This document shows positions 36,216 to 61,545 of a stretch of DNA of 64,000 bases, piece after piece. How positions within the stretch are numbered: position 1 is the first letter of the stretch; every line of letters starts with the position of its first letter. The stretch lies in IMG/VR virus record IMGVR_UViG_3300045772_000033, positions 13,873 to 77,872 of that record; one strand, written 5' to 3'. Source of the DNA: a virus. Under the pieces are notes generated by a model. It made no database searches. It worked only from the letters and a program-made list of their open reading frames with translations, and had not been told where the DNA came from. The translations under genes and the position numbers were made by a program.

Positions 36216-36418
36216 TTCGCGCCTCCGTGCGCTGTGCCGGATCGTCCGGCGGGCGTGGGCTGGCCGTCTATGCGGCGCTTATGCTCATCATTCACGATGA
36301 TCCTGATGCAATCTAAATCGCTTTGCCTCATCTCGTGAATGTTCCCGATTATGAGCGTCGATCCCCAATCAGCCTTTTCAGCGGCAGTGCGCTGCATAAA
36401 GCCCATGTGTTCTTTCAT
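36212..36418 (-). CDS. Hypothetical protein
   Basis: GGAGG RBS; the 3' end runs through the repeat element. Confidence 0.55.
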   Translation of the reverse strand: MKEHMGFMQRTAAEKADWGSTLIIGNIHEMRQSDLDCIRIIVNDEHKRRIDGQPTPAGRSGTAHGGAK

Positions 36419-50907: not shown

Positions 50908-50981
50908 TTGTCACCTCAACTACTGGAGTGTAACTGCAAAGCGAGTGGAAAGTCAAGGGCCTGCGATAGCAAGACCCTCAC

Positions 50982-51047
50982 ATAAAGATGGTACAACTAT
51001 CGTATAAAGATGGTACAACTATCGTATAAAGATGGTACAACTATCGT
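50982..51047. repeat. Three perfect 22-bp tandem repeats (iteron-like)
   Basis: ATAAAGATGGTACAACTATCGT x3. Confidence 0.9.
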
Positions 51048-51680
51048 AGGAGACAAGATTATGTGTCTTTTACAAGTAGTTTACGAGTCGTTTACAAGTA
51101 GTTTACGTGTTGTCGGCGAGTGTCCGCATACTCGTTTTGATAACGCCAGACGATAGTTGGGCGATTGTTAGGTTGTATTAAAAATAGCCCGCGAACATAA
51201 AAACCGAGTGCAAACGCAAAAATCGTGCTGAGTGCGCCTAGAAATTCCGAGTCCTTCTAGGGCGTTCTAAGGGGCGAAATTCTATGCTAAACCTTTTATT
51301 ATCTATGACTTGGCTAGGTATTTCTGATCGAGATGCGATATTCCCGGTCCGTGGGGAGAATTTTGCATTACAGTGGGGAAGTGAGGCACCACCGGAGATG
51401 CCGAAAAGCTATTATTATATTTTATATTGATTGATCTTTCTTCTAGAATAAGTAAAGAGAGTAGTAAAGTGCTGATTCTAAAAGGCCGTTTTGTTCTGAG
51501 TAAAAAAGTTGTACTTGGAATCACTTGGAATTAATCGCCCCACTCAGCCGGTGGCCATCCTTTGCAGCGGGTCCGGGTTCCGCTGCGAATGTCGTTGCGC
51601 TACGGGCATTCGCTTGTGTCCATCGGGTGCGCTGCCTCGCGTAGGATGCCGTTGGTGCTGACGCCGACGACGATGAAGCC

Positions 51681-51737
51681 GAGCAGAATTACGATGACAA
51701 GGACCAATGGCTGACCCTTGTCATCGTAATTCTGCTC
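51681..51737. repeat. Perfect 22-bp inverted repeat with 13-nt loop
   Basis: GAGCAGAATTACGATGACAAGG / CCTTGTCATCGTAATTCTGCTC. Confidence 0.9.
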
Positions 51738-51909
51738 CTGTGGGTTTGATGGTTTGAGGGTTTGAGGGTTTTACCAAATAGGCAAAGGGGTCGTTAGCCG
51801 ATCACTATCGCCAGCACGCCCAGGAGCAGGGCGAGTATAAGCTCCAAGATGATGCGGACGAGGGATGGGTGGTGTGTGGCCGGGTCGTCGTAGGGGATCT
51901 GGTGGTGGG

Positions 51910-52239
51910 TCATTGTGCTGGCCTCCCGATGCGAAAGTTGTAGGGTAGGTTCCGCTCGATCTCGCTGCCGTGGGGAAACTCTGCGCTCAGCCAGTGGCGC
52001 ATGAAGGCATAGAGCCAATCCCGGCCAGATTGGCCGTGGTCGGCTTGAGAACGGAGACGCCGCCGGAAGGCTGGATTTTTGGCGTAGCAGTGTTCCGCCC
52101 GGTTGGCCAGATTGCCGGCCAGATCGCCGCTGGCCTTCAGTTCGATTCCCTTCCCGTGTAAGTAGAGGGCCAACTCGTGAATTACCGCGTCGGCCACCAC
52201 TGCCGGGAGGAGGACTGTTTCTTCTTCGATTGTTTTCAT
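51910..52239 (-). CDS. Hypothetical protein
   Basis: ATGA-coupled to the recombinase gene. Confidence 0.7.
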   Translation of the reverse strand: MKTIEEETVLLPAVVADAVIHELALYLHGKGIELKASGDLAGNLANRAEHCYAKNPAFRRRLRSQADHGQSGRDWLYAFMRHWLSAEFPHGSEIERNLPYNFRIGRPAQ

Positions 52240-52877
52240 GCCGCGGCCTGCCTTTCTTGTTTGGTCTTCAGCCAGGAATAGATGGTCTGTCGGGACACTT
52301 TGGTTTGGCGGGCCATCTCAGCCACTGGGGTGCTGAGGATGTAGAGGCGCTCCAGCTCGGCCAGTTTGCCATTGTTGGAGCGTATCGCCGGCGCACGTCC
52401 TGTATATTTGCTGGCGAAAGCGTGCGCTTGATGGTCGTGTTCTGCGCGGGATTTTCCACAGGTTACGCAGCGTTTTGCGATGGCGACGCCCTCTTTCATG
52501 CGCTCAAGCAGGAGGCTGCGCTCCATCTCCGCGAAGCCAGCAAGCAGTAAGAAAAGTAGTTTGTTGATCGGTGAGTCATTATCGCCGGAGAAAGATAGCG
52601 CCGGGTGTAGGAAGGTTACAGTGACTCCCTCGGCTGTCAGTTCTTCTACGATGTCCATGAGATCCCGAACGTTGCGTCCAAGTCTGTCGAGCGAGTGGAC
52701 GACCAGGGTGTCGCCTTCGCGTAGGAATTCCATGCAGGCTTGCAGTTGCGGGCGATTTCTGTCCTTTCCGCTCAACTTATCTTCAAAAATTTTATCAAGC
52801 GGCACATCTTCAAGTTGTCTTGCTGTGTTTTGATCCGCCGTTGAAGTTCGGCGGTAGCCTATGCGTTTTCCTGTCAT
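52236..52877 (-). CDS. Small serine recombinase (resolvase/invertase family)
   Basis: GYRRTSTADQ catalytic Ser, DKLSGKDRNRPQL, VHSLDRLGR, AEMER..ER, C-terminal HTH VSRQTIY. Confidence 0.95.
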   Translation of the reverse strand: MTGKRIGYRRTSTADQNTARQLEDVPLDKIFEDKLSGKDRNRPQLQACMEFLREGDTLVVHSLDRLGRNVRDLMDIVEELTAEGVTVTFLHPALSFSGDNDSPINKLLFLLLAGFAEMERSLLLERMKEGVAIAKRCVTCGKSRAEHDHQAHAFASKYTGRAPAIRSNNGKLAELERLYILSTPVAEMARQTKVSRQTIYSWLKTKQERQAAA

Positions 52878-53008
52878 GTTTTCCTTTCCTTTCCCGGTGT
52901 TTATTCAAAGCGGGCGAAGTCTCCGAAGAAGAAAGTCGCCGCCCGGCAATATGCTGCGTGGAGGCTCTGGAGATGGTGATATCTTGCCGGATACGCTCCG
53001 GCGGGCGG

Positions 53009-53206
53009 TTAGTACCACTTCGGCAAAGGTCTAACGATGATCCCCTGACGTTCGCAGAGATCAATAAAACTTCTTTCGTCGCTATGGTCTTTGCCGTATT
53101 TTCGACTCCGCTCTAACCTCTTCCTCGTGGCGAGTGCGTGTCCATCTGGCGTGTTGTGAAGCCGATACGCTGTCTTGTCTTTCTTACTCTGCTCTTGGGG
53201 TGTCAT
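53009..53206 (-). CDS. 65-aa hypothetical protein (copy 2)
   Basis: Identical to 53986..54183. Confidence 0.7.
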   Translation of the reverse strand: MTPQEQSKKDKTAYRLHNTPDGHALATRKRLERSRKYGKDHSDERSFIDLCERQGIIVRPLPKWY

Positions 53207-53247
53207 TTCGCGCCTCCATGCGCTGTGCCGGATCGTCCGGCGGGCGG

Positions 53248-53433
53248 TTAGGCCATTGAATCGTAAAGCTGAGCAGCGCGAGCCTTCAAAATCTGTATGG
53301 CTTCAAAATTCGCATGATGCTCTGAGGGCAAATGAGTGCGCAAACTCACATAATCAGACGCCATCAAATACTGCACGGCGTGTACGAGCTTAGTGACCAT
53401 CTCGCGGGCGATTCTCTTTTCTCTGATTGTCAT
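53248..53433 (-). CDS. Small hypothetical protein (MTIREKRIA)
   Basis: GGGAGG RBS. Confidence 0.65.
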   Translation of the reverse strand: MTIREKRIAREMVTKLVHAVQYLMASDYVSLRTHLPSEHHANFEAIQILKARAAQLYDSMA

Positions 53434-53538
53434 TGTTCCTCCCTTGCATGATTTGAGCCGGATACGCTCCGGCGGGCGGTTAGTACCACTTCGGCAAAGG
53501 TCTAACGATGATCCCCTCACGTTACTTATCGTAGTGTG

Positions 53539-53742
53539 TCAAATGTGCGATATTGCACCTGTTACAGCCGATCCGGGAGTGGATGGTTTTAGTTCCCATC
53601 CGTAAAAATTGTCGAAGCGTCTTTCCGGCGCTGTCTCACATCTAGAGACTCCCAGATTTGCTTTCTCCTCGGTATCAACAGAGTGCAAGATGCGTTTCCG
53701 GCCTTGTGCGTCTATCCGATAGATCAAATAAGTGTCTGCCAT
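53539..53742 (-). CDS. Small hypothetical protein
   Basis: GGGAGG RBS. Confidence 0.65.
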   Translation of the reverse strand: MADTYLIYRIDAQGRKRILHSVDTEEKANLGVSRCETAPERRFDNFYGWELKPSTPGSAVTGAISHI

Positions 53743-53767
53743 TGTTTCCTCCCTTGCATGAGTGTGT

Positions 53768-53941
53768 TTAGGCTGCGACGCGGCGAATCGTGGCCAGTTG
53801 ATCGTGATCGAAATTACCGCTCAACTGGTAGCAGCGGATACTCCACGCCGCTTTAGCGTTCACAGCCTCACGCCGATGGTCGTAAAGGCTCTCGGATGTG
53901 TGCTTTCCGTCGGTGATGGTCAACTTCCAGAGATACTTCAT
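53768..53941 (-). CDS. Small hypothetical protein (MKYLWKL)
   Basis: GGAGG RBS within the repeat element. Confidence 0.65.
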   Translation of the reverse strand: MKYLWKLTITDGKHTSESLYDHRREAVNAKAAWSIRCYQLSGNFDHDQLATIRRVAA

Positions 53942-53985
53942 TTTCCCGCGCCTCCATGCGCTGTGCCGGATCGTCCGGCGGGCGG

Positions 53986-54183
53986 TTAGTACCACTTCGG
54001 CAAAGGTCTAACGATGATCCCCTGACGTTCGCAGAGATCAATAAAACTTCTTTCGTCGCTATGGTCTTTGCCGTATTTTCGACTCCGCTCTAACCTCTTC
54101 CTCGTGGCGAGTGCGTGTCCATCTGGCGTGTTGTGAAGCCGATACGCTGTCTTGTCTTTCTTACTCTGCTCTTGGGGTGTCAT
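53986..54183 (-). CDS. 65-aa hypothetical protein (copy 1)
   Basis: Identical to 53009..53206. Confidence 0.7.
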   Translation of the reverse strand: MTPQEQSKKDKTAYRLHNTPDGHALATRKRLERSRKYGKDHSDERSFIDLCERQGIIVRPLPKWY

Positions 54184-54243
54184 TTCGCGCCTCCATGCGC
54201 TGTGACTCTGTTGTAGCTTCCTTCGGTTGCGGCTTGCGCCGGT

Positions 54244-54774
54244 TCACTCGCCGAAGTAAAGCTGCTGCACCCACTCAAGCATGATGTCGTCCTGGTCGCT
54301 GGTGGTCTGCGCGTCGGTCCACGGCTTAAACAAATCCTGAAACTGGAATATCGCCGTGTAGGGTTCGCCGTCTTGGAGTTCGCCCACGATCTGAGAAGCG
54401 GGGCCGCCGCCGCCCAGCGTTACCTTGTACTCGCCGTCACGGTCTGCGCCGTTCTCGCCGGGGTTGTGCCACTCAGAGCGAATCTGTATGCCGTAATGAC
54501 CTTCCTCGATTGCTTCCCGCGCCCGGTCTTCATCGTGCCACGCTTCCGGGTTTTCGTGGATGCACTGCTGGCCGGTCTTGCCGTCGCTGGTTTTGTATTT
54601 CTTGGTTTCGCTGCCCCGCTTGCAGGGCTTCCCGTTCGCCAGCTTGCCGTCGCACTCGCGGGCATGGTGGAGCGCGTCCAGGTCGTCTTTCATGGACTCG
54701 ATGCACCGGGCCGCATACTCGTTTGTGCGCGTCTGGAAGTCTTTCTCTTCATGCACTGCCGCCGCTGTAGTCAT
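54244..54774 (-). CDS. Hypothetical early protein
   Basis: AGGAG RBS; YKVTLGGGGPASQIVGEL..FQD..PW motif. Confidence 0.7.
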   Translation of the reverse strand: MTTAAAVHEEKDFQTRTNEYAARCIESMKDDLDALHHARECDGKLANGKPCKRGSETKKYKTSDGKTGQQCIHENPEAWHDEDRAREAIEEGHYGIQIRSEWHNPGENGADRDGEYKVTLGGGGPASQIVGELQDGEPYTAIFQFQDLFKPWTDAQTTSDQDDIMLEWVQQLYFGE

Positions 54775-54876
54775 TGTTTCAATCTCCTGCCGCTGGCGCG
54801 GCCCGGTTACGATCCGGCAACGGTTAGAAGCTACCACCCAAAAGCATTGTCCGGCTGCATTACGGGCAAGGCCCGG

Positions 54877-55548
54877 TTAAAGTTGATAGTTTTCTGCTTC
54901 CACTCGTGTCAAGAAAAAGTGAATGCCGGGGGCGCAAACGTCCCATCTGTTTTCGCTAAAAGAATCGGGAAGAACGGTGTCACCTTTTTTATATACAACG
55001 TGCGCGTCGTAGGAGCTCACCCCCGATTTTGCGCCATATACCTCAAGAACCACCACTTCGGACGACCGGCACTTTCTTTCTGCGCCGTGCGATCTTTTGG
55101 CGTGTTCTGGGATAAGCAAACGCACAATAACTCCGTTACAGCATTTTTTCCACCCTTCAAAGCTGCCTGTTTCTGGGATGAATTGAATCTGAGCTAAAGC
55201 CGCCGCCGCGTTCAAAGCGCCCTGCAAATCCGCGCCCTGCAAATACGCGCCCCGCAAATCCGCGCCCTGCAAATCCGCGCCCTGCAAATACGCGCCCCGC
55301 AAATACGCGCCCTGCAAATCCGCGCCCTGCAAATCCGCGCCCTGCAAATCCGCGCCCCGCAAAACCGCGCCCCGCAAATCCGCGCCCCGCAAATCCGCGC
55401 CCCGCAAAACCGCGCCCTGCAAATCCGCGCCCTGCAAATCCGCGCCCCGCAAATACGCGCCCTTTTTTACAGCACTCCCTACGGTTTCTTTGATGGTTGT
55501 ATTAGGCGAAGTGTAGAGCACAGCGCCGTAGATGTTTTTAATCTCCAT
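54877..55548 (-). CDS. Pentapeptide-repeat protein with DUF5758-like C-terminal domain
   Basis: 16 GA(D/Y/V)L(R/Q) repeats built from 15-bp units; GWKK..RKCRS..CAPGIHFFLTR. Confidence 0.88.
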   Translation of the reverse strand: MEIKNIYGAVLYTSPNTTIKETVGSAVKKGAYLRGADLQGADLQGAVLRGADLRGADLRGAVLRGADLQGADLQGADLQGAYLRGAYLQGADLQGADLRGAYLQGADLQGALNAAAALAQIQFIPETGSFEGWKKCCNGVIVRLLIPEHAKRSHGAERKCRSSEVVVLEVYGAKSGVSSYDAHVVYKKGDTVLPDSFSENRWDVCAPGIHFFLTRVEAENYQL

Positions 55549-55826
55549 TGTTTCCTCCGCTCTCCGACTTTCTCATCCCCAGCTTGAGATAGGGCAAAGG
55601 TGCGTTATGGCTCTCAGGTCGGTTACGATCCGGCAACGGTTAGAGATAAATTAGAACAAGCACGGCCAGGACGATTACAGCCAGGACGAATTTATCGAGG
55701 GTTGAAGTCTCGGAGGGTTGGCGCGCGGGCCTTTGGCCTAGGATGTGCGTTAGCCGGTCGGCGAATTGTGCATCTGCCACTTCCGGCCGATGTTGGAATG
55801 ATGCGTCTTTCATGTTCATTGGGTTG

Positions 55827-56255
55827 TTAGCTCCAGATTTTTCCATCGTCGCCGATGTAGAGGTCGAATTCGCCGAAGTTGTGAGAGACCGTGGTAAGAG
55901 CCGCCGCTGCTGGCTCCGCCCAGTCGCCATCCCAGAAGCCGGCGCCGTGGTGGTTACGGGTCAGCCAAAAGTCATGGCTGGCGCTTTCTTCCACGGTGTA
56001 GTCGTAGGCCGCCCGCGTCGGGGTCCGATGATCTTCAGCCAGATACAGGGCGCATTCGGCCAGGAACTTCTCACAGTCGGCGCGCATGGCCGCCGCCGTT
56101 TCCGGCGCCAGGTCCGCCGCGGTGTAATTGCTGTCGAGAAATTCATCGGCGTCATCTGCGCTTGACCAGAGAGCCGCGGTTACATAGGCATTGAAAAAGG
56201 CCGTTGCGCGCCGGGTTTGCGAAACGTTGCCCGCTGTTTTTGTCGCTTTGTCCAT
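55827..56255 (-). CDS. Hypothetical early protein
   Basis: AYVTAALWSS..HDFWLTRNHHGAGFWD. Confidence 0.75.
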   Translation of the reverse strand: MDKATKTAGNVSQTRRATAFFNAYVTAALWSSADDADEFLDSNYTAADLAPETAAAMRADCEKFLAECALYLAEDHRTPTRAAYDYTVEESASHDFWLTRNHHGAGFWDGDWAEPAAAALTTVSHNFGEFDLYIGDDGKIWS

Positions 56256-56276
56256 CTGAATTCCTCCAGTTTCTTG

Positions 56277-56305
56277 ACGCTATCACAAGTTTATTGCCTT
56301 GTCAA
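56277..56305 (-). promoter_or_regulatory. Sigma70-type early promoter
   Basis: TTGACA-17-TAGCGT with extended TG; same ends as the promoter at 37634-37662. Confidence 0.6.
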
Positions 56306-56450
56306 GTACCTAGTTAGACGGGCCGGCTGCCGGGCGGCTCAAGTCTTCAAACCATTCCCGCCCGCATTGGCCGCAGCCCCGCCGTTTGTTTTGTGGTGGT
56401 AGAGTCGCATTGTCCTTTTCTCCTTTTCTGAATTCTGGTACACTGTTTTC

Positions 56451-56855
56451 ATGCGCCCGTCCACTAACACCCGCTCCAAATATCCTCATCCTGAGCGAGT
56501 CCCAGCGCTTCAGGCTCGGAAATCTCCTTGTACCCCTGGCGGGCCGTTCGCCGATCTGCCCTGGGCTCAAAAGCGCGCCGCCGAGCAGTGGTTTTACAAA
56601 TTCTGCCAGAAGTGGGGCGATGATCTGCCCCCCTGGCGCCGGGCCATTTTGATGGGCGTAGCAAAGCGATTGGCAAAGAATCCGCCTGGTTTGAACTTCG
56701 GTTATCGACTTCATAACCACCTAGGCGCTAATGTTTTGGCCGCCCGGTGCAAAGCTGAAGGGCGCCCCCATCCGCGAATCGTAGCGATGCAGGCCGGCAT
56801 GGCTTGGAAAAAGGCAGGCCGGCCAGCTTTGGCTGTAAGGCAATTGGCGGTTTAA
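56451..56855 (+). CDS. Hypothetical protein (isolated + strand gene)
   Basis: 134 aa, basic; stop overlaps that of a convergent gene. Confidence 0.55.
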   Translation: MRPSTNTRSKYPHPERVPALQARKSPCTPGGPFADLPWAQKRAAEQWFYKFCQKWGDDLPPWRRAILMGVAKRLAKNPPGLNFGYRLHNHLGANVLAARCKAEGRPHPRIVAMQAGMAWKKAGRPALAVRQLAV

Positions 56856-56998
56856 TCGTCGCTCATTTCGGGCGAGTACCAGCCGGTTTCCTTAAAATAA
56901 CCGTCATCGTCCATTTCAGTCTGAAAAGCGTCTTGAATCGTGTCGCCGTCCAGTTTATCGAGGATCGCCAGCAGATACTGATCGCGGATGTGTTCCAC
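56852..56998 (-). CDS. 48-aa acidic peptide
   Basis: GTG start coupled to the upstream stop; 14 D/E versus 3 K/R. Confidence 0.5.
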   Translation of the reverse strand: MEHIRDQYLLAILDKLDGDTIQDAFQTEMDDDGYFKETGWYSPEMSDD

Positions 56999-57477
56999 TA
57001 TTGCACCTGACTTTCTGCGGTTAGTTCGCGCGCGGTTTCCACGTAATAGACCAGCGAATCCCTGAGTAGGGATTCAATCGCCGCCCGGAACCTGATAAAC
57101 TGGCGGCGCTCTGTCTTGTCTTCCACGTCCGGGTAAACCGCATATCCCTTGTCCGGGCCCTGCCCGGTCCATTCCGTGGCCAGTTTGCCGGCTGCATCGC
57201 GCTGGGTGTACGGTACTAACCAACCACTCGAGCGGCCTTCAGAGAATACGCCGCTGTAGCCATGTTCAACTGCGATTATGCCGGCGGATTGCCAGAATCG
57301 CTCTACGGCCTCATCCCAGGCCGCCGCGCGTATATCGTCCGGCGCGTCAACTTCCGGCGCCCGCTGTACCTTGACGTTTATTGCCGGGTGTGAGTGTGTT
57401 TCCATCATATTGTCTGAGTGGAATTGAATATCCACGTGCCTTGCCGCTGCCGCTTTGCTTTTCCCAAGAGTGTTCAT
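56998..57477 (-). CDS. Hypothetical early protein
   Basis: GAGG RBS; PAINVKV..EGRSSGWL. Confidence 0.7.
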   Translation of the reverse strand: MNTLGKSKAAAARHVDIQFHSDNMMETHSHPAINVKVQRAPEVDAPDDIRAAAWDEAVERFWQSAGIIAVEHGYSGVFSEGRSSGWLVPYTQRDAAGKLATEWTGQGPDKGYAVYPDVEDKTERRQFIRFRAAIESLLRDSLVYYVETARELTAESQVQ

Positions 57478-57526
57478 GAGCGTTACCTCTCCTTTTCTTC
57501 GCCGGCAGCTCCGCCGGCCCGGTTAT

Positions 57527-57703
57527 ATGTGGGGAATATTTTCCCCACATTTCAGCTGCCAAGTGTGGACTTTTAGCCACACTTATACTTAATTTCATAG
57601 ATGTGGGGAATATTTTCCCCACATCTCAGCCGTAAAGCGCGTTTTTCAGCCGCGCTTATACGTAAATCCATAGATGTGGGGAATAATTTCCCCACATTTC
57701 AAC
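57527..57703. repeat. Three near-perfect 24-bp palindromes at 73-74 bp period
   Basis: ATGTGGGGAA-TA(T/A)T-TTCCCCACAT at 57527, 57601 and 57674. Confidence 0.9.
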
Positions 57704-58278: not shown

Positions 58279-58350
58279 TGTCTTAGATCCTCTCTTCTTA
58301 CGAATTGACGGCGCCTTGCCAGGCCGCTTTGCGCGAAAGTCGGCAGGGTT

Positions 58351-58605
58351 TTACCAAATAGGTAAAGGGGATGGGTTGCGTTTGAACCAGATATTACCGC
58401 GTCCCTCAGTAACCAGTAGAAAAGAAAGAGAAGCGCCACAGCGTGTCAGGTTATGGTTGCGCGCGAATTCATCCGCCGCCAGATCAAAGGCCGCGATTTG
58501 AGCCGTGGTGGCTTTGGCTACTAGCGCGTCGTCCCATTGGAGGACTACTTCGTTTTCGCCGTGTAACAGAGCGGTCAATGTTAAACCAAAATTCTTGAAA
58601 GTCAT
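58351..58605 (-). CDS. Hypothetical protein
   Basis: AAGGA RBS; ends PLPIW. Confidence 0.6.
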   Translation of the reverse strand: MTFKNFGLTLTALLHGENEVVLQWDDALVAKATTAQIAAFDLAADEFARNHNLTRCGASLSFLLVTEGRGNIWFKRNPSPLPIW

Positions 58606-59813: not shown

Positions 59814-61545
59814 ATGGAAAATTCAGGCACAGGAGCCGTCGTGACAAAAGCCTTCTGGAAAGCCTTCTGCCTCCTCTTTGGCCACTCCCCCACTCAAGTC
59901 CCCACCTTATTCTTTCTTTCTTGGGATGGCCTGATCGAGATCGGCTCTCTCCACTGCCAGCGCTGCGGCGCGATGACGGGCGAATACAAACGGAATATGG
60001 CGGAGCCAGTCCAATGAGCAAACGAAGGTTATCGGCGGGTAATATGGACTACGGCCGGACCTTTTATCCCAACGAGCCGGACGACTTGGCCTATCTGAAG
60101 CGACTGGCCAAAGATACTCGCGGGGACGAGAGCCTCTGGCCGGAGTTGAACCTGCGGATTTGTGGACGGCCAAAACCGGAGGAGCCCTCACTCCAATGAT
60201 CCCCCCATCCACCTACGACTGCCCCATCTGCGATCAAGTCTGCCCTAGCCTCGCGCAATACATCTCTCACTACGAGAAGGCGCACGATCGCAGCGCGACG
60301 GGTCCGGGTTCCGCCGCGGCGGCAGCCGAGGGCGCAGCCCGTCACGATGCTCCTGGCACCAGATACCCCAACGGTTGTCCTATTCTGGACGACGAAGGCG
60401 AGGAACGAGAATGAAGTCCCCCAACTTTCAAGACAAGATCGACGAGATTCTGGCCCCTTACCGCCAGGCGTGCCTGGCTCTGAAACTTCTCAAATGGGAG
60501 ATCGAGCGCGCGGCGGGTCCGGGTTCCGCCGCAATCGCGCAGGAAGGAAAATGAGGATGAGCGACAAAGAATGTGTTTGCAACGAGATGATCACCAAGTT
60601 AAATCACGAAGATGCGTCGGAGTTCACCGACAGGTACTACCATTCTTGCGTCTCGTGGGACTGCGAGAAGCACGGCAAGGTTTCGGTGGATAACCGCAGT
60701 GTCCAGCACACCCACCCGCCGGCTTACACTTCTAGCCGTCTTTTTGACCCGCCCAAGGCAAAGTTTCCAGATCGGAGAGTGCGAGGATGAGCGACAAACA
60801 CTACGAAGCCATGGCCAACATCAAAATTCCCGAACAGATGCGCCAAGCGGCGCTGGACGCCGCGGGGCCAAACTGTCAAGGGCTGCCCGTGGCAGGAGAT
60901 CGCGGAGGCCGCGGACGATCAACGCGACCACTCTTACCGATTCGAGTCAGCGACGCACCAGAGGAGGGTGTGAGAGATGATAGATGACAAACAGTCTCTG
61001 TACCAGTGTCCAAAGTGTTACCTCGGATTTCTGTCTTTGTGGGCGTACTGGAAGCACATGAGGGAAGTTCACAACGAGAGGGCGGTGGGAAAATGAGCAA
61101 GAAGCAATGCGTAGTACCGGAAGGGATGTTGAAGGCGGCGCATGAGGCCAACTTTTCACTTGATGCGCCTGTGAGGCAGATCGTCGAAGCGGCTCTGCGC
61201 TGGCAGTCTGAGAACCCGATTGTTCCCACACAAGAGCAGTACGAGGAGTTGCACAAGAAGTGGAGATATGATGGAATAACCAAGGCATCTTCGGCGATTG
61301 AGTTTCAGAGAATATGTCGCGCGTGGCAGCGCCAGATGCACCTCGCCCCGGAGCCGGAAGTGCCGGAGGATATTAAAGACCTTCTGATGGGGTCAGCCTA
61401 CACTCCCATGACTGGTATGGTGGAATTGAATCCTGAGTGGGATAAGAGAATCATCGAAGCCTACCGCCGTGGCCAAGCCAGTAAGGAATCTTCGGTTGTC
61501 AATCTCGGCAAGCCTCAGTATCTTTTGGAGAGAGGCAGAGTATAA
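59814..61545 (+). other. Run of small, tightly coupled hypothetical genes
   Basis: Overlapping ATGA/TGA-coupled ORFs (e.g. 60014..60199; 60196..60414 with CxxC..H..H; 60787..60987; 61093..61545). Confidence 0.5.

Follow-up and report, generated by a model that had tools for sequence, protein, structure and literature searches.

A stretch of 64,000 nt from an uncultured tailed phage (bases 13873-77872 of the IMG/VR virus record IMGVR_UViG_3300045772_000033; hereafter the window) carries on its minus strand, at 52986-54234, a row of small genes joined by a repeated connector, in which a TAA stop codon is followed by CCGCCC, a GC-rich hairpin and a ribosome-binding site (RBS) module. The connector is probably an mRNA punctuation hairpin that doubles as a substrate for homologous recombination, in the manner of the PeSLs of T4-type phages. 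Because the element lies tightly behind stop codons, shows a strand bias and forms a stable small hairpin lacking a U tract, an intercistronic signal in mRNA fits it best. The source record is 77,872 bp long and 100% complete according to CheckV. Since its genome (G000) encodes a major head protein, a family-A DNA polymerase, a primase and an exonuclease, it was assigned to a tailed dsDNA phage; near-identical sequence was found in metagenome runs from peat, permafrost and freshwater (14 studies).

The 16-mer CTAACCGCCCGCCGGA occurs in exactly four copies, all on the minus strand (52997-53012, 53236-53251, 53468-53483 and 53974-53989), with 0.01 copies expected by chance. An exact count on both strands thus bore out the initial annotation, which had listed four copies of CTAACCGCCCGCCGGA followed by CGA or GCGTA and then by TCCGGC, with TAA serving as the stop codon. 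Full elements with a GCGTA loop lie at 52986-53012 (49.1 bits with model R1) and 53457-53483 (50.3 bits), and those with a CGA loop at 53227-53251 (41.8 bits) and 53965-53989 (41.6 bits). Genes A2 (at 53009), D (53248) and A1 (53986) end in frame on the TAA of the element, which also closes a stub of gene A at 53480. Along the minus strand, a 176-aa gene is followed by a leader with RBS module 1 (54184-54234), the first copy of gene A (A1, 53986-54183, an open reading frame (ORF) of 65 aa), the element with a variant of RBS module 1 (53942-53964, repeat family D4), gene B (53768-53941, 57 aa), the first copy of RBS module 2 (53743-53761), gene C (53539-53742, 67 aa) and the 3' stub of gene A (53480-53523, 41 nt of coding sequence plus TAA, family D3). 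The stub leads into an element with the second copy of RBS module 2 (53434-53451), gene D (53248-53433, 61 aa), an element with RBS module 1 (53207-53226), the second copy of gene A (A2, 53009-53206, identical to the first), the last element, a spacer of about 110 nt and a serine recombinase gene.

Two long repeats account for the copies of gene A. The stretch 52997-53227, which contains A2, is 100% identical to 53974-54204 over 231 nt, and 53457-53523 at the stub is 99% identical to 52986-53052 over 67 nt. RBS module 1 stands ahead of A1, A2 and B, whereas RBS module 2 (TCATGCAAGGGAGGAA) is present only at 53436-53451 and 53746-53761. The reuse of the two modules, the occurrence of the 65-aa gene as two identical copies plus a 3' stub, and the serine recombinase at the end of the array had all been described in the initial annotation, and all proved right. 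Four different genes open with the codons ATG-ACA-CC, so these first codons belong to the shared module. An outlying partial copy, consisting of the hairpin, RBS module 1 and ATGACACC but no TAA, was found 17 kb away at 36208-36255 on the minus strand (25.1 bits with model R1 over 36228-36255); there, the upstream ORF translates the hairpin and RBS module 1 and runs to a TGA overlapping the next ATG. Genes A, B, C and D are without a known family, showing no match in Pfam or PHROG. A search for homologous proteins of gene A was empty, and a protein search of viral contigs found no relative of it. The early or anti-defence role that had been proposed for A-D is therefore a guess, as they match no family.

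Comparison of the copies gave the consensus (C/A)TAA-CCGCCC, a stem of 6-7 bp (almost always GCCGGA/TCCGGC), a loop of the type G-Y-R-N(0-2)-A, and then A or C. Folded as RNA, the hairpin makes up 0.71-0.97 of the ensemble, with a free energy of -11.4 to -13.6 kcal/mol. Most stems being identical, covariation is scarce, yet four stem variants show changes on both sides with pairing kept: CCCCGG/CCGGGG, CCCCTG/CAGGGG, GCCTGA/TCAGGC and GCCGCGA/TCGCGGC. Two of these four came from a search in which only the 5' flank and the loop were specified and the 3' arm was left free; the chance matches it returned carried 3-6 mismatches where the stem would be. Compensation in the stem and a loop of variable length suggest a folded single strand more than a binding site in double-stranded DNA. 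A pseudoknot between loop and flank (GCG with CGC) was set aside, because both parts are invariant. A promoter scan found no site in any connector within 52986-54234. With Rfam 15 we obtained no relevant match in 51000-57000, only chance matches of the miRNA type to a long hairpin at 51676-51740. Among 50,697 GenBank phage records there was no true match, only weak coding matches in Arthrobacter phages, and a full-text literature search for the sequence of the element found no paper.

Exact searches for the form with CTAA gave 18 contigs from metagenomes and 4 further ones from IMG/VR. A single match came from the 185,579 prokaryote species genomes, in a prophage-like stretch of a metagenome-assembled genome of Bacillota (43% GC). 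Omission of CTAA from the search yielded 81 IMG/VR stretches, about 50 of which share one loop type (GCGCA, GCGTA, GCGATA, GCGTTA, GCATA, GTGA); the remainder consists of longer hairpins of an ordinary kind or of matches to coding sequence in GC-rich phages. Together, the IMG/VR and metagenome matches amount to about 60 distinct instances, on contigs with GC contents from 0.40 to 0.71, and several contigs have two copies. The phages that bear the element come from peat, sludge and digesters, and a Bacillota prophage is also among them.

The element has a definite orientation relative to genes. In the sense orientation, an ORF of at least 60 codons ends no more than 45 nt upstream at 43 of the 60 instances, often on the TAA of the element itself, and an ORF led by a Shine-Dalgarno sequence starts no more than 90 nt downstream at 36. 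In the mirror orientation, the corresponding numbers are 10 and 1. This strand bias points to the transcript as the acting form. The flanking proteins are mostly unrelated singletons, so the element is not the untranslated end of one travelling gene; no protein family is common to the element-bearing loci, the best being present at 8 of 61. In one family, located between a putative prohead protease gene and scaffold genes (named from sequence only), the real stop codon lies 17-40 nt upstream and the TAA is still kept. The TAA, then, belongs to the element.

The element has also been sampled by a host. It forms a 34-nt spacer in four peat contigs (L025, L029, L030 and L031) that represent one large CRISPR array with at least 117 distinct spacers. 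The array sits behind cas1-cas2 (L031:1-1336; array to about 9900), and its repeats end in ATTGAAAC. Its occurrence as a spacer shows that the element is a real phage sequence sampled by a host. The best match of this spacer is L032, a relative of the phage studied here; none of the other spacers of the peat array matches the window itself. At least four other spacers match the element-bearing viral contigs L008/L009 over 28-32 nt, which links the L008/L009 phages to the host of the array. That the element mimics the CRISPR repeat of the peat array was considered and rejected: the likeness is only loose, and the ATTGAAAC tail is absent from the element. In L008/L009, a gene composed of 33-nt tandem repeats (L009:160-550; 11-aa unit of the APAWAEYERVT type) lies downstream of the element, and the number of repeats differs between these otherwise identical contigs.

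Close relatives of the phage differ from the window by insertions, deletions and replacements that are bounded by the motif (L017, L018, L019, L022 and L032). Contig L019 corresponds to window positions 51252-53052 and then jumps to 53457-53596. It is without 471 bp, namely gene D and most of A2, which is exactly the stretch between the two 67-nt repeats; the stub of gene A lies there directly upstream of the recombinase. Contig L018, from the same sample as L019, has the 176-aa gene and genes A, B and C, plus an insertion of 666 bp with four extra small genes between two copies of RBS module 2; its A-to-B connector has a GCGTA loop in place of CGA. In L017/L022, the leader with RBS module 1 (54187-54234 in the window, 94% identical) and the hairpin with RBS module 1 are kept, and two other genes take the place of A and B, the leader thus preceding a different gene. 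Contig L032 has gene A (95% identical) after a zinc-ribbon gene with no hairpin between them, followed by another gene and a putative transposase gene of the IS1595 type. Such transposase genes, recognized by eye from sequence only, lie inside or beside equivalent accessory arrays at L032:1-1000 and L022:5966-6931.

Outside this lineage, homology between L048 and L007/L088 starts exactly at TAACCGCCC, and the upstream genes are unrelated. Loose contig ends in three metagenome runs connect RBS module 1 to the L017-type gene with weak support, and one contig of the freshwater run X9 joins 53761 to 53961, skipping gene B, which is weak as well with only 20 nt on the shorter side. A gap over gene D in run X2 and the ratios of depth were left out of the evidence. 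Breakpoints fall at several points: in the 3' coding end of gene A, between hairpin and RBS, and within RBS module 2 or the first codons. Breakpoints so scattered are expected from homologous recombination on short repeats, not from a site-specific enzyme. Accordingly, the rearranging cassette-like array envisaged in the initial annotation is upheld in that relatives differ by whole genes with breakpoints in the modules, but the recombinase as its possible driver is not.

We propose that the array represents a hyperplastic accessory-gene block within the leftward early operon of the phage. Its small ORFan genes are joined by connectors of three parts, namely TAA-CCGCCC with a GC hairpin of 6 bp, one of two Shine-Dalgarno modules and, often, ATG-ACA-CC. 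The hairpin sub-module belongs to a widespread, hitherto undescribed phage element that probably acts on the transcribed strand. Most likely as a 3' stem-loop behind the upstream cistron, it would protect or delimit the message in the way of bacterial REP elements, attenuate transcription or insulate cistrons, and the RBS module after it would serve the next gene. Sequences of 25-70 nt recurring between unrelated genes would allow homologous recombination or replication slippage between copies, and by this pathway, we infer, intervening genes may be deleted, duplicated, inserted or replaced, within a genome as well as between co-infecting relatives.

Several points weigh against this proposal. 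The searches of the collections needed exact words, and conservation of the element is partly so by construction. The tails of the hairpins are A/C-rich, with no U tract, and none of the four copies was called as a terminator; on these grounds, a canonical (rho-independent) terminator was rejected. Folding z-scores of 71-nt windows were unremarkable. The CGA and CGCA loops of the phage and its relatives do not follow the common G-Y-R-N-A type. Over 23-27 nt, the element is nearly identical in phages of very different GC contents, which exceeds what a merely stabilising hairpin needs and hints at a specific partner or at horizontal spread. The role of the hairpin in RNA is one that we infer. 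Finally, the duplication of gene A is supported by one assembly only (G000).

The last point raises the question of whether A2 is an artefact of assembly, the real genome having one gene A plus the stub. The 100% identity of the repeat and the single assembly behind it would agree with that, and so would L018 and L019, which both come from another sample and fit one gene A plus the stub; the public runs compared are Logan contigs, which are broken at every repeat and bridge none. However, assemblers usually collapse repeats rather than duplicate them, and a single crossover with a D-A unit, whether circular or co-infecting, would produce exactly the order stub-hairpin-RBS2-D-hairpin-RBS1-A-hairpin. 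We therefore regard an artefact as rather unlikely; if real, it would alter only the copy number of gene A and not the reading of the connector. Less credible still is an integron-like cassette system in which the serine recombinase acts on paired hairpin elements to excise and insert cassettes, which we consider very improbable. In its favour, a spacer of about 110 nt separates the recombinase gene (52236-52877, minus strand, 213 aa) from the last element, single genes are bounded by elements in direct repeat, and L019 differs by the loss of one repeat-bounded unit. The protein is a small recombinase of the invertase/resolvase type; it has the motif of the catalytic serine and, ahead of the helix-turn-helix (HTH) domain, an insert rich in Cys and His (Pfam Resolvase PF00239, E=1.3e-33, plus HTH_7; PHROG 'DNA invertase', E=2.7e-51). 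But the 67-nt repeats at the edges of the L019 deletion take in 41 nt of the coding sequence of gene A, as homologous recombination would give, and other breakpoints lie in RBS module 2 or the spacer, not in the hairpin. The crossover sites of serine recombinases (res site I, hix, gix) consist of two inverted half-sites of about 12 bp around a fixed 2-bp crossover; the element differs from them in its 6-bp arms and its spacer of 3, 4, 5 or 6 nt even within one genome, and a loop of 3-6 nt between such arms is incompatible with a fixed 2-bp crossover. A search for inverted and direct repeats near the recombinase and across the window found no repeated candidate sites, only chance 11-12-mers. 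Among about 100 element-bearing loci, compared over flanks of about 14 kb or less, the recombinase is present only in the window and in L019 of the same lineage, with a weak match of 28% in L024; a Resolvase domain is also lacking from three further IMG/VR records with the element, each of them incomplete. The link between element and recombinase suggested in the initial annotation was thus not supported by a survey of their co-occurrence of the kind that it called for: the element stands between unrelated genes at about 60 places elsewhere, with variable loop length and scattered breakpoints. We take the serine recombinase to be a neighbour of the array and not the driver of its rearrangement. 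A protein search with the recombinase found only distant relatives (no more than 46% identity), and it could act in inversion, resolution or integration. Its insert between the catalytic domain and HTH (52416-52469), composed of CxxC and several His, may bind zinc.

With its flank and loop conserved, the element could still have a specific binding partner. It is unlikely, in our judgement, that the hairpin mainly docks a specific RNA-binding factor of the phage or its host, as a boxB/nut-like antitermination site or a translational operator would, with recombination as a by-product. This explanation would account for the conservation of the single-stranded 5' flank (TAA)CCGCCC and of the loop sequence while the stem can covary, and for the strict strand bias; the identity across GC contents of 0.40-0.71 suggests recognition over mere stability; and lambda boxB has a loop of the type G-N-R-(N)-A, to which common loops in other phages (GCGCA, GCGTA, GCATA, GCGAA and GTGA) conform. 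On the other hand, two of the four copies in this phage have CGA loops, no boxA-like sequence is present (the flank CCGCCC being unlike boxA), and a single operon with 4-5 copies, and short contigs with as many as two, are unlike what is known of nut sites; a protein family common to the loci is missing. A wider formulation, in which TAA-CCGCCC-hairpin is a horizontally spreading, strand-specific signal that is read by a conserved trans-acting partner, punctuates messages and defines exchangeable gene units, is possible but doubtful; the element would then be a universal connector of phage accessory genes, so conserved that a CRISPR system of a host can target it. As to a small mobile or selfish phage hairpin, REP- or MITE-like (repetitive extragenic palindromic; miniature inverted-repeat transposable element), which a trans-acting enzyme would copy into further intergenic sites by way of single-stranded DNA, we find it improbable. 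The element does combine a hairpin with a conserved flank on one side, as REPs and the ends of IS200/IS605 do; it is identical in unrelated phages, with several copies per genome beside unrelated genes, and it brings its own TAA, also at sites whose real stop codon is 17-40 nt further upstream. Strict co-orientation with transcription, however, is not expected of a transposing hairpin; no target duplications or empty sites were seen, and no enzyme is common to the loci. Moreover, G000 has neither a Y1 transposase (PF01797) nor a reverse transcriptase (PF00078), and the CTAA form matches 1 of 185,579 species genomes, on which grounds an IS200/IS605 end, the target hairpin of a diversity-generating retroelement and a host REP element, respectively, were rejected.

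As an mRNA punctuation hairpin and recombination substrate, the connector resembles known systems in part. In the PeSLs (promoter-early stem-loops) of T4-type phages, which are restricted to T4-like myoviruses, a strong sigma-70 promoter is coupled to a terminator stem-loop, and recombination between copies explains indels and replacements between close relatives (Arbiol et al. 2010, PMC2839356; Comeau et al. 2014, PMC4122927). The connectors share with PeSLs a short length, a composite make-up of regulatory parts and repeated occurrence between small non-essential genes of hyperplastic regions; here, too, recombination between copies probably explains the insertions, deletions and replacements seen between relatives. 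Unlike PeSLs, they consist of a stop codon, a hairpin and a Shine-Dalgarno sequence with no promoter-like site, the phage is not T4-like, and the hairpin core is common to many unrelated phages. The start-associated sequences (SAS, 13 bp) and extended SAS (ESAS, 17-bp arms) of Cluster K mycobacteriophages are restricted to one phage cluster and tied to start codons (Pope et al. 2011, PMC3203893). They share with the connector a conserved asymmetric repeat that includes the RBS and stands in one orientation ahead of a subset of genes of different families, and in both an inverted repeat whose spacer varies often comes before it; the sequence is different, however, and the connector hairpin is tied more to the upstream stop codon, across unrelated phages. 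With no promoter, a different sequence and different phages, the connector belongs to neither PeSLs nor SAS/ESAS.

REPs of bacterial chromosomes protect upstream mRNA from 3' exonucleases and serve as recombination substrates; they are present in hundreds of copies per host chromosome and are associated with RAYT transposases. The connector is similar in its GC-rich hairpin, its conserved flank and its position just after stop codons inside operons, but it is nearly absent from the species genomes and the Y1 transposase is missing from G000. With integron attC sites it shares a position after the cassette ORF, often overlapping the stop codon, and CTAAC resembles the inverse core RYYYAAC. It differs in that no GTTRRRY core lies downstream and that it is 25-27 nt long with a perfect hairpin of 15-17 nt (6-bp stem), whereas attC is an imperfect palindrome of 57-141 bp; furthermore, IntI is a tyrosine recombinase, and the neighbour here is a serine recombinase (Resolvase). 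RNase III hairpins of T7 lie between early genes in the long early transcript. The connector is likewise intercistronic in an early transcript and could define stable single-gene messages, but its 6-bp stem is far too short for RNase III. In general, the phenomenon is known; this element matches no Rfam family, cultured phage or paper, and its near-identity across unrelated phages is unusual.

Around the array, small genes form a leftward block from about 51.7 to 58.4 kb. TAACCG has 30 matches in the window, 13 of which are located on the minus strand between 53006 and 57525, including those of a second and a cousin connector, which indicates that most junctions in the block start alike. The second connector family (CTAACCGTTGCCGGATCGTAACCG; repeat family D6), which shows no stable fold, has copies at 54804-54828 and 55620-55644, both on the minus strand, and the TAA of the latter is the stop codon of a small membrane-protein ORF. 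The cousin connector at 57500-57525 (minus strand) has TAACCG, a different GC hairpin and a Shine-Dalgarno sequence ahead of a 159-aa gene. A 26-nt direct repeat (51765-51790 and 58345-58370, 96% identical) brackets the whole 6.6-kb accessory block including the recombinase, and one of its ends codes for the last residues of a gene. A perfect inverted repeat of 22 bp with a 13-nt loop and no U tract (51681-51737) closes the leftward early block and is the source of the spurious Rfam matches of the miRNA type. Non-coding DNA upstream of the early genes (57497-57701) contains three copies of a palindrome of the ATGTGGGGAATATTTTCCCCACAT type at a spacing of 73-74 bp, operator-like in appearance, and three 22-bp tandem units of the GATGGTACAACTATCGTATAAA type at 50965-51048, in a gene-poor stretch of lower GC content, resemble iterons or operators. 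A separate hairpin family with the core GGGTCCGGGTTCC, unrelated to the connector, is found at 51562-51586, 60293-60317 and 60508-60532. Within the block, the product of the gene at 54877-55548 joins a pentapeptide-repeat domain to DUF5758 (Pfam, 5e-42 and 5e-26), and about 15 near-identical 15-bp units encode the pentapeptide-repeat part. Elsewhere in the window, two adjacent paralogous genes at 33336-34543 (86% identity over 300 nt) are rich in tandem repeats of 9-12 bp.

The acquisition and shuffling by phages of the many small accessory and counter-defence genes in their early regions is understood in mechanistic detail for few model groups, such as T4-type phages with their PeSLs. Here, a different connector, composed of a stop codon, a hairpin and an RBS, probably does the same job. 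Should the core prove to have a specific function or partner, viral metagenomics would gain a broadly applicable marker of cassette boundaries as well as a new cis-acting RNA for study; should it be no more than a spreading recombination scar, it would show over what distances short sequences pass from one phage lineage to another. Its presence as a spacer in the peat array shows that CRISPR targeting can extend to a conserved non-coding element.

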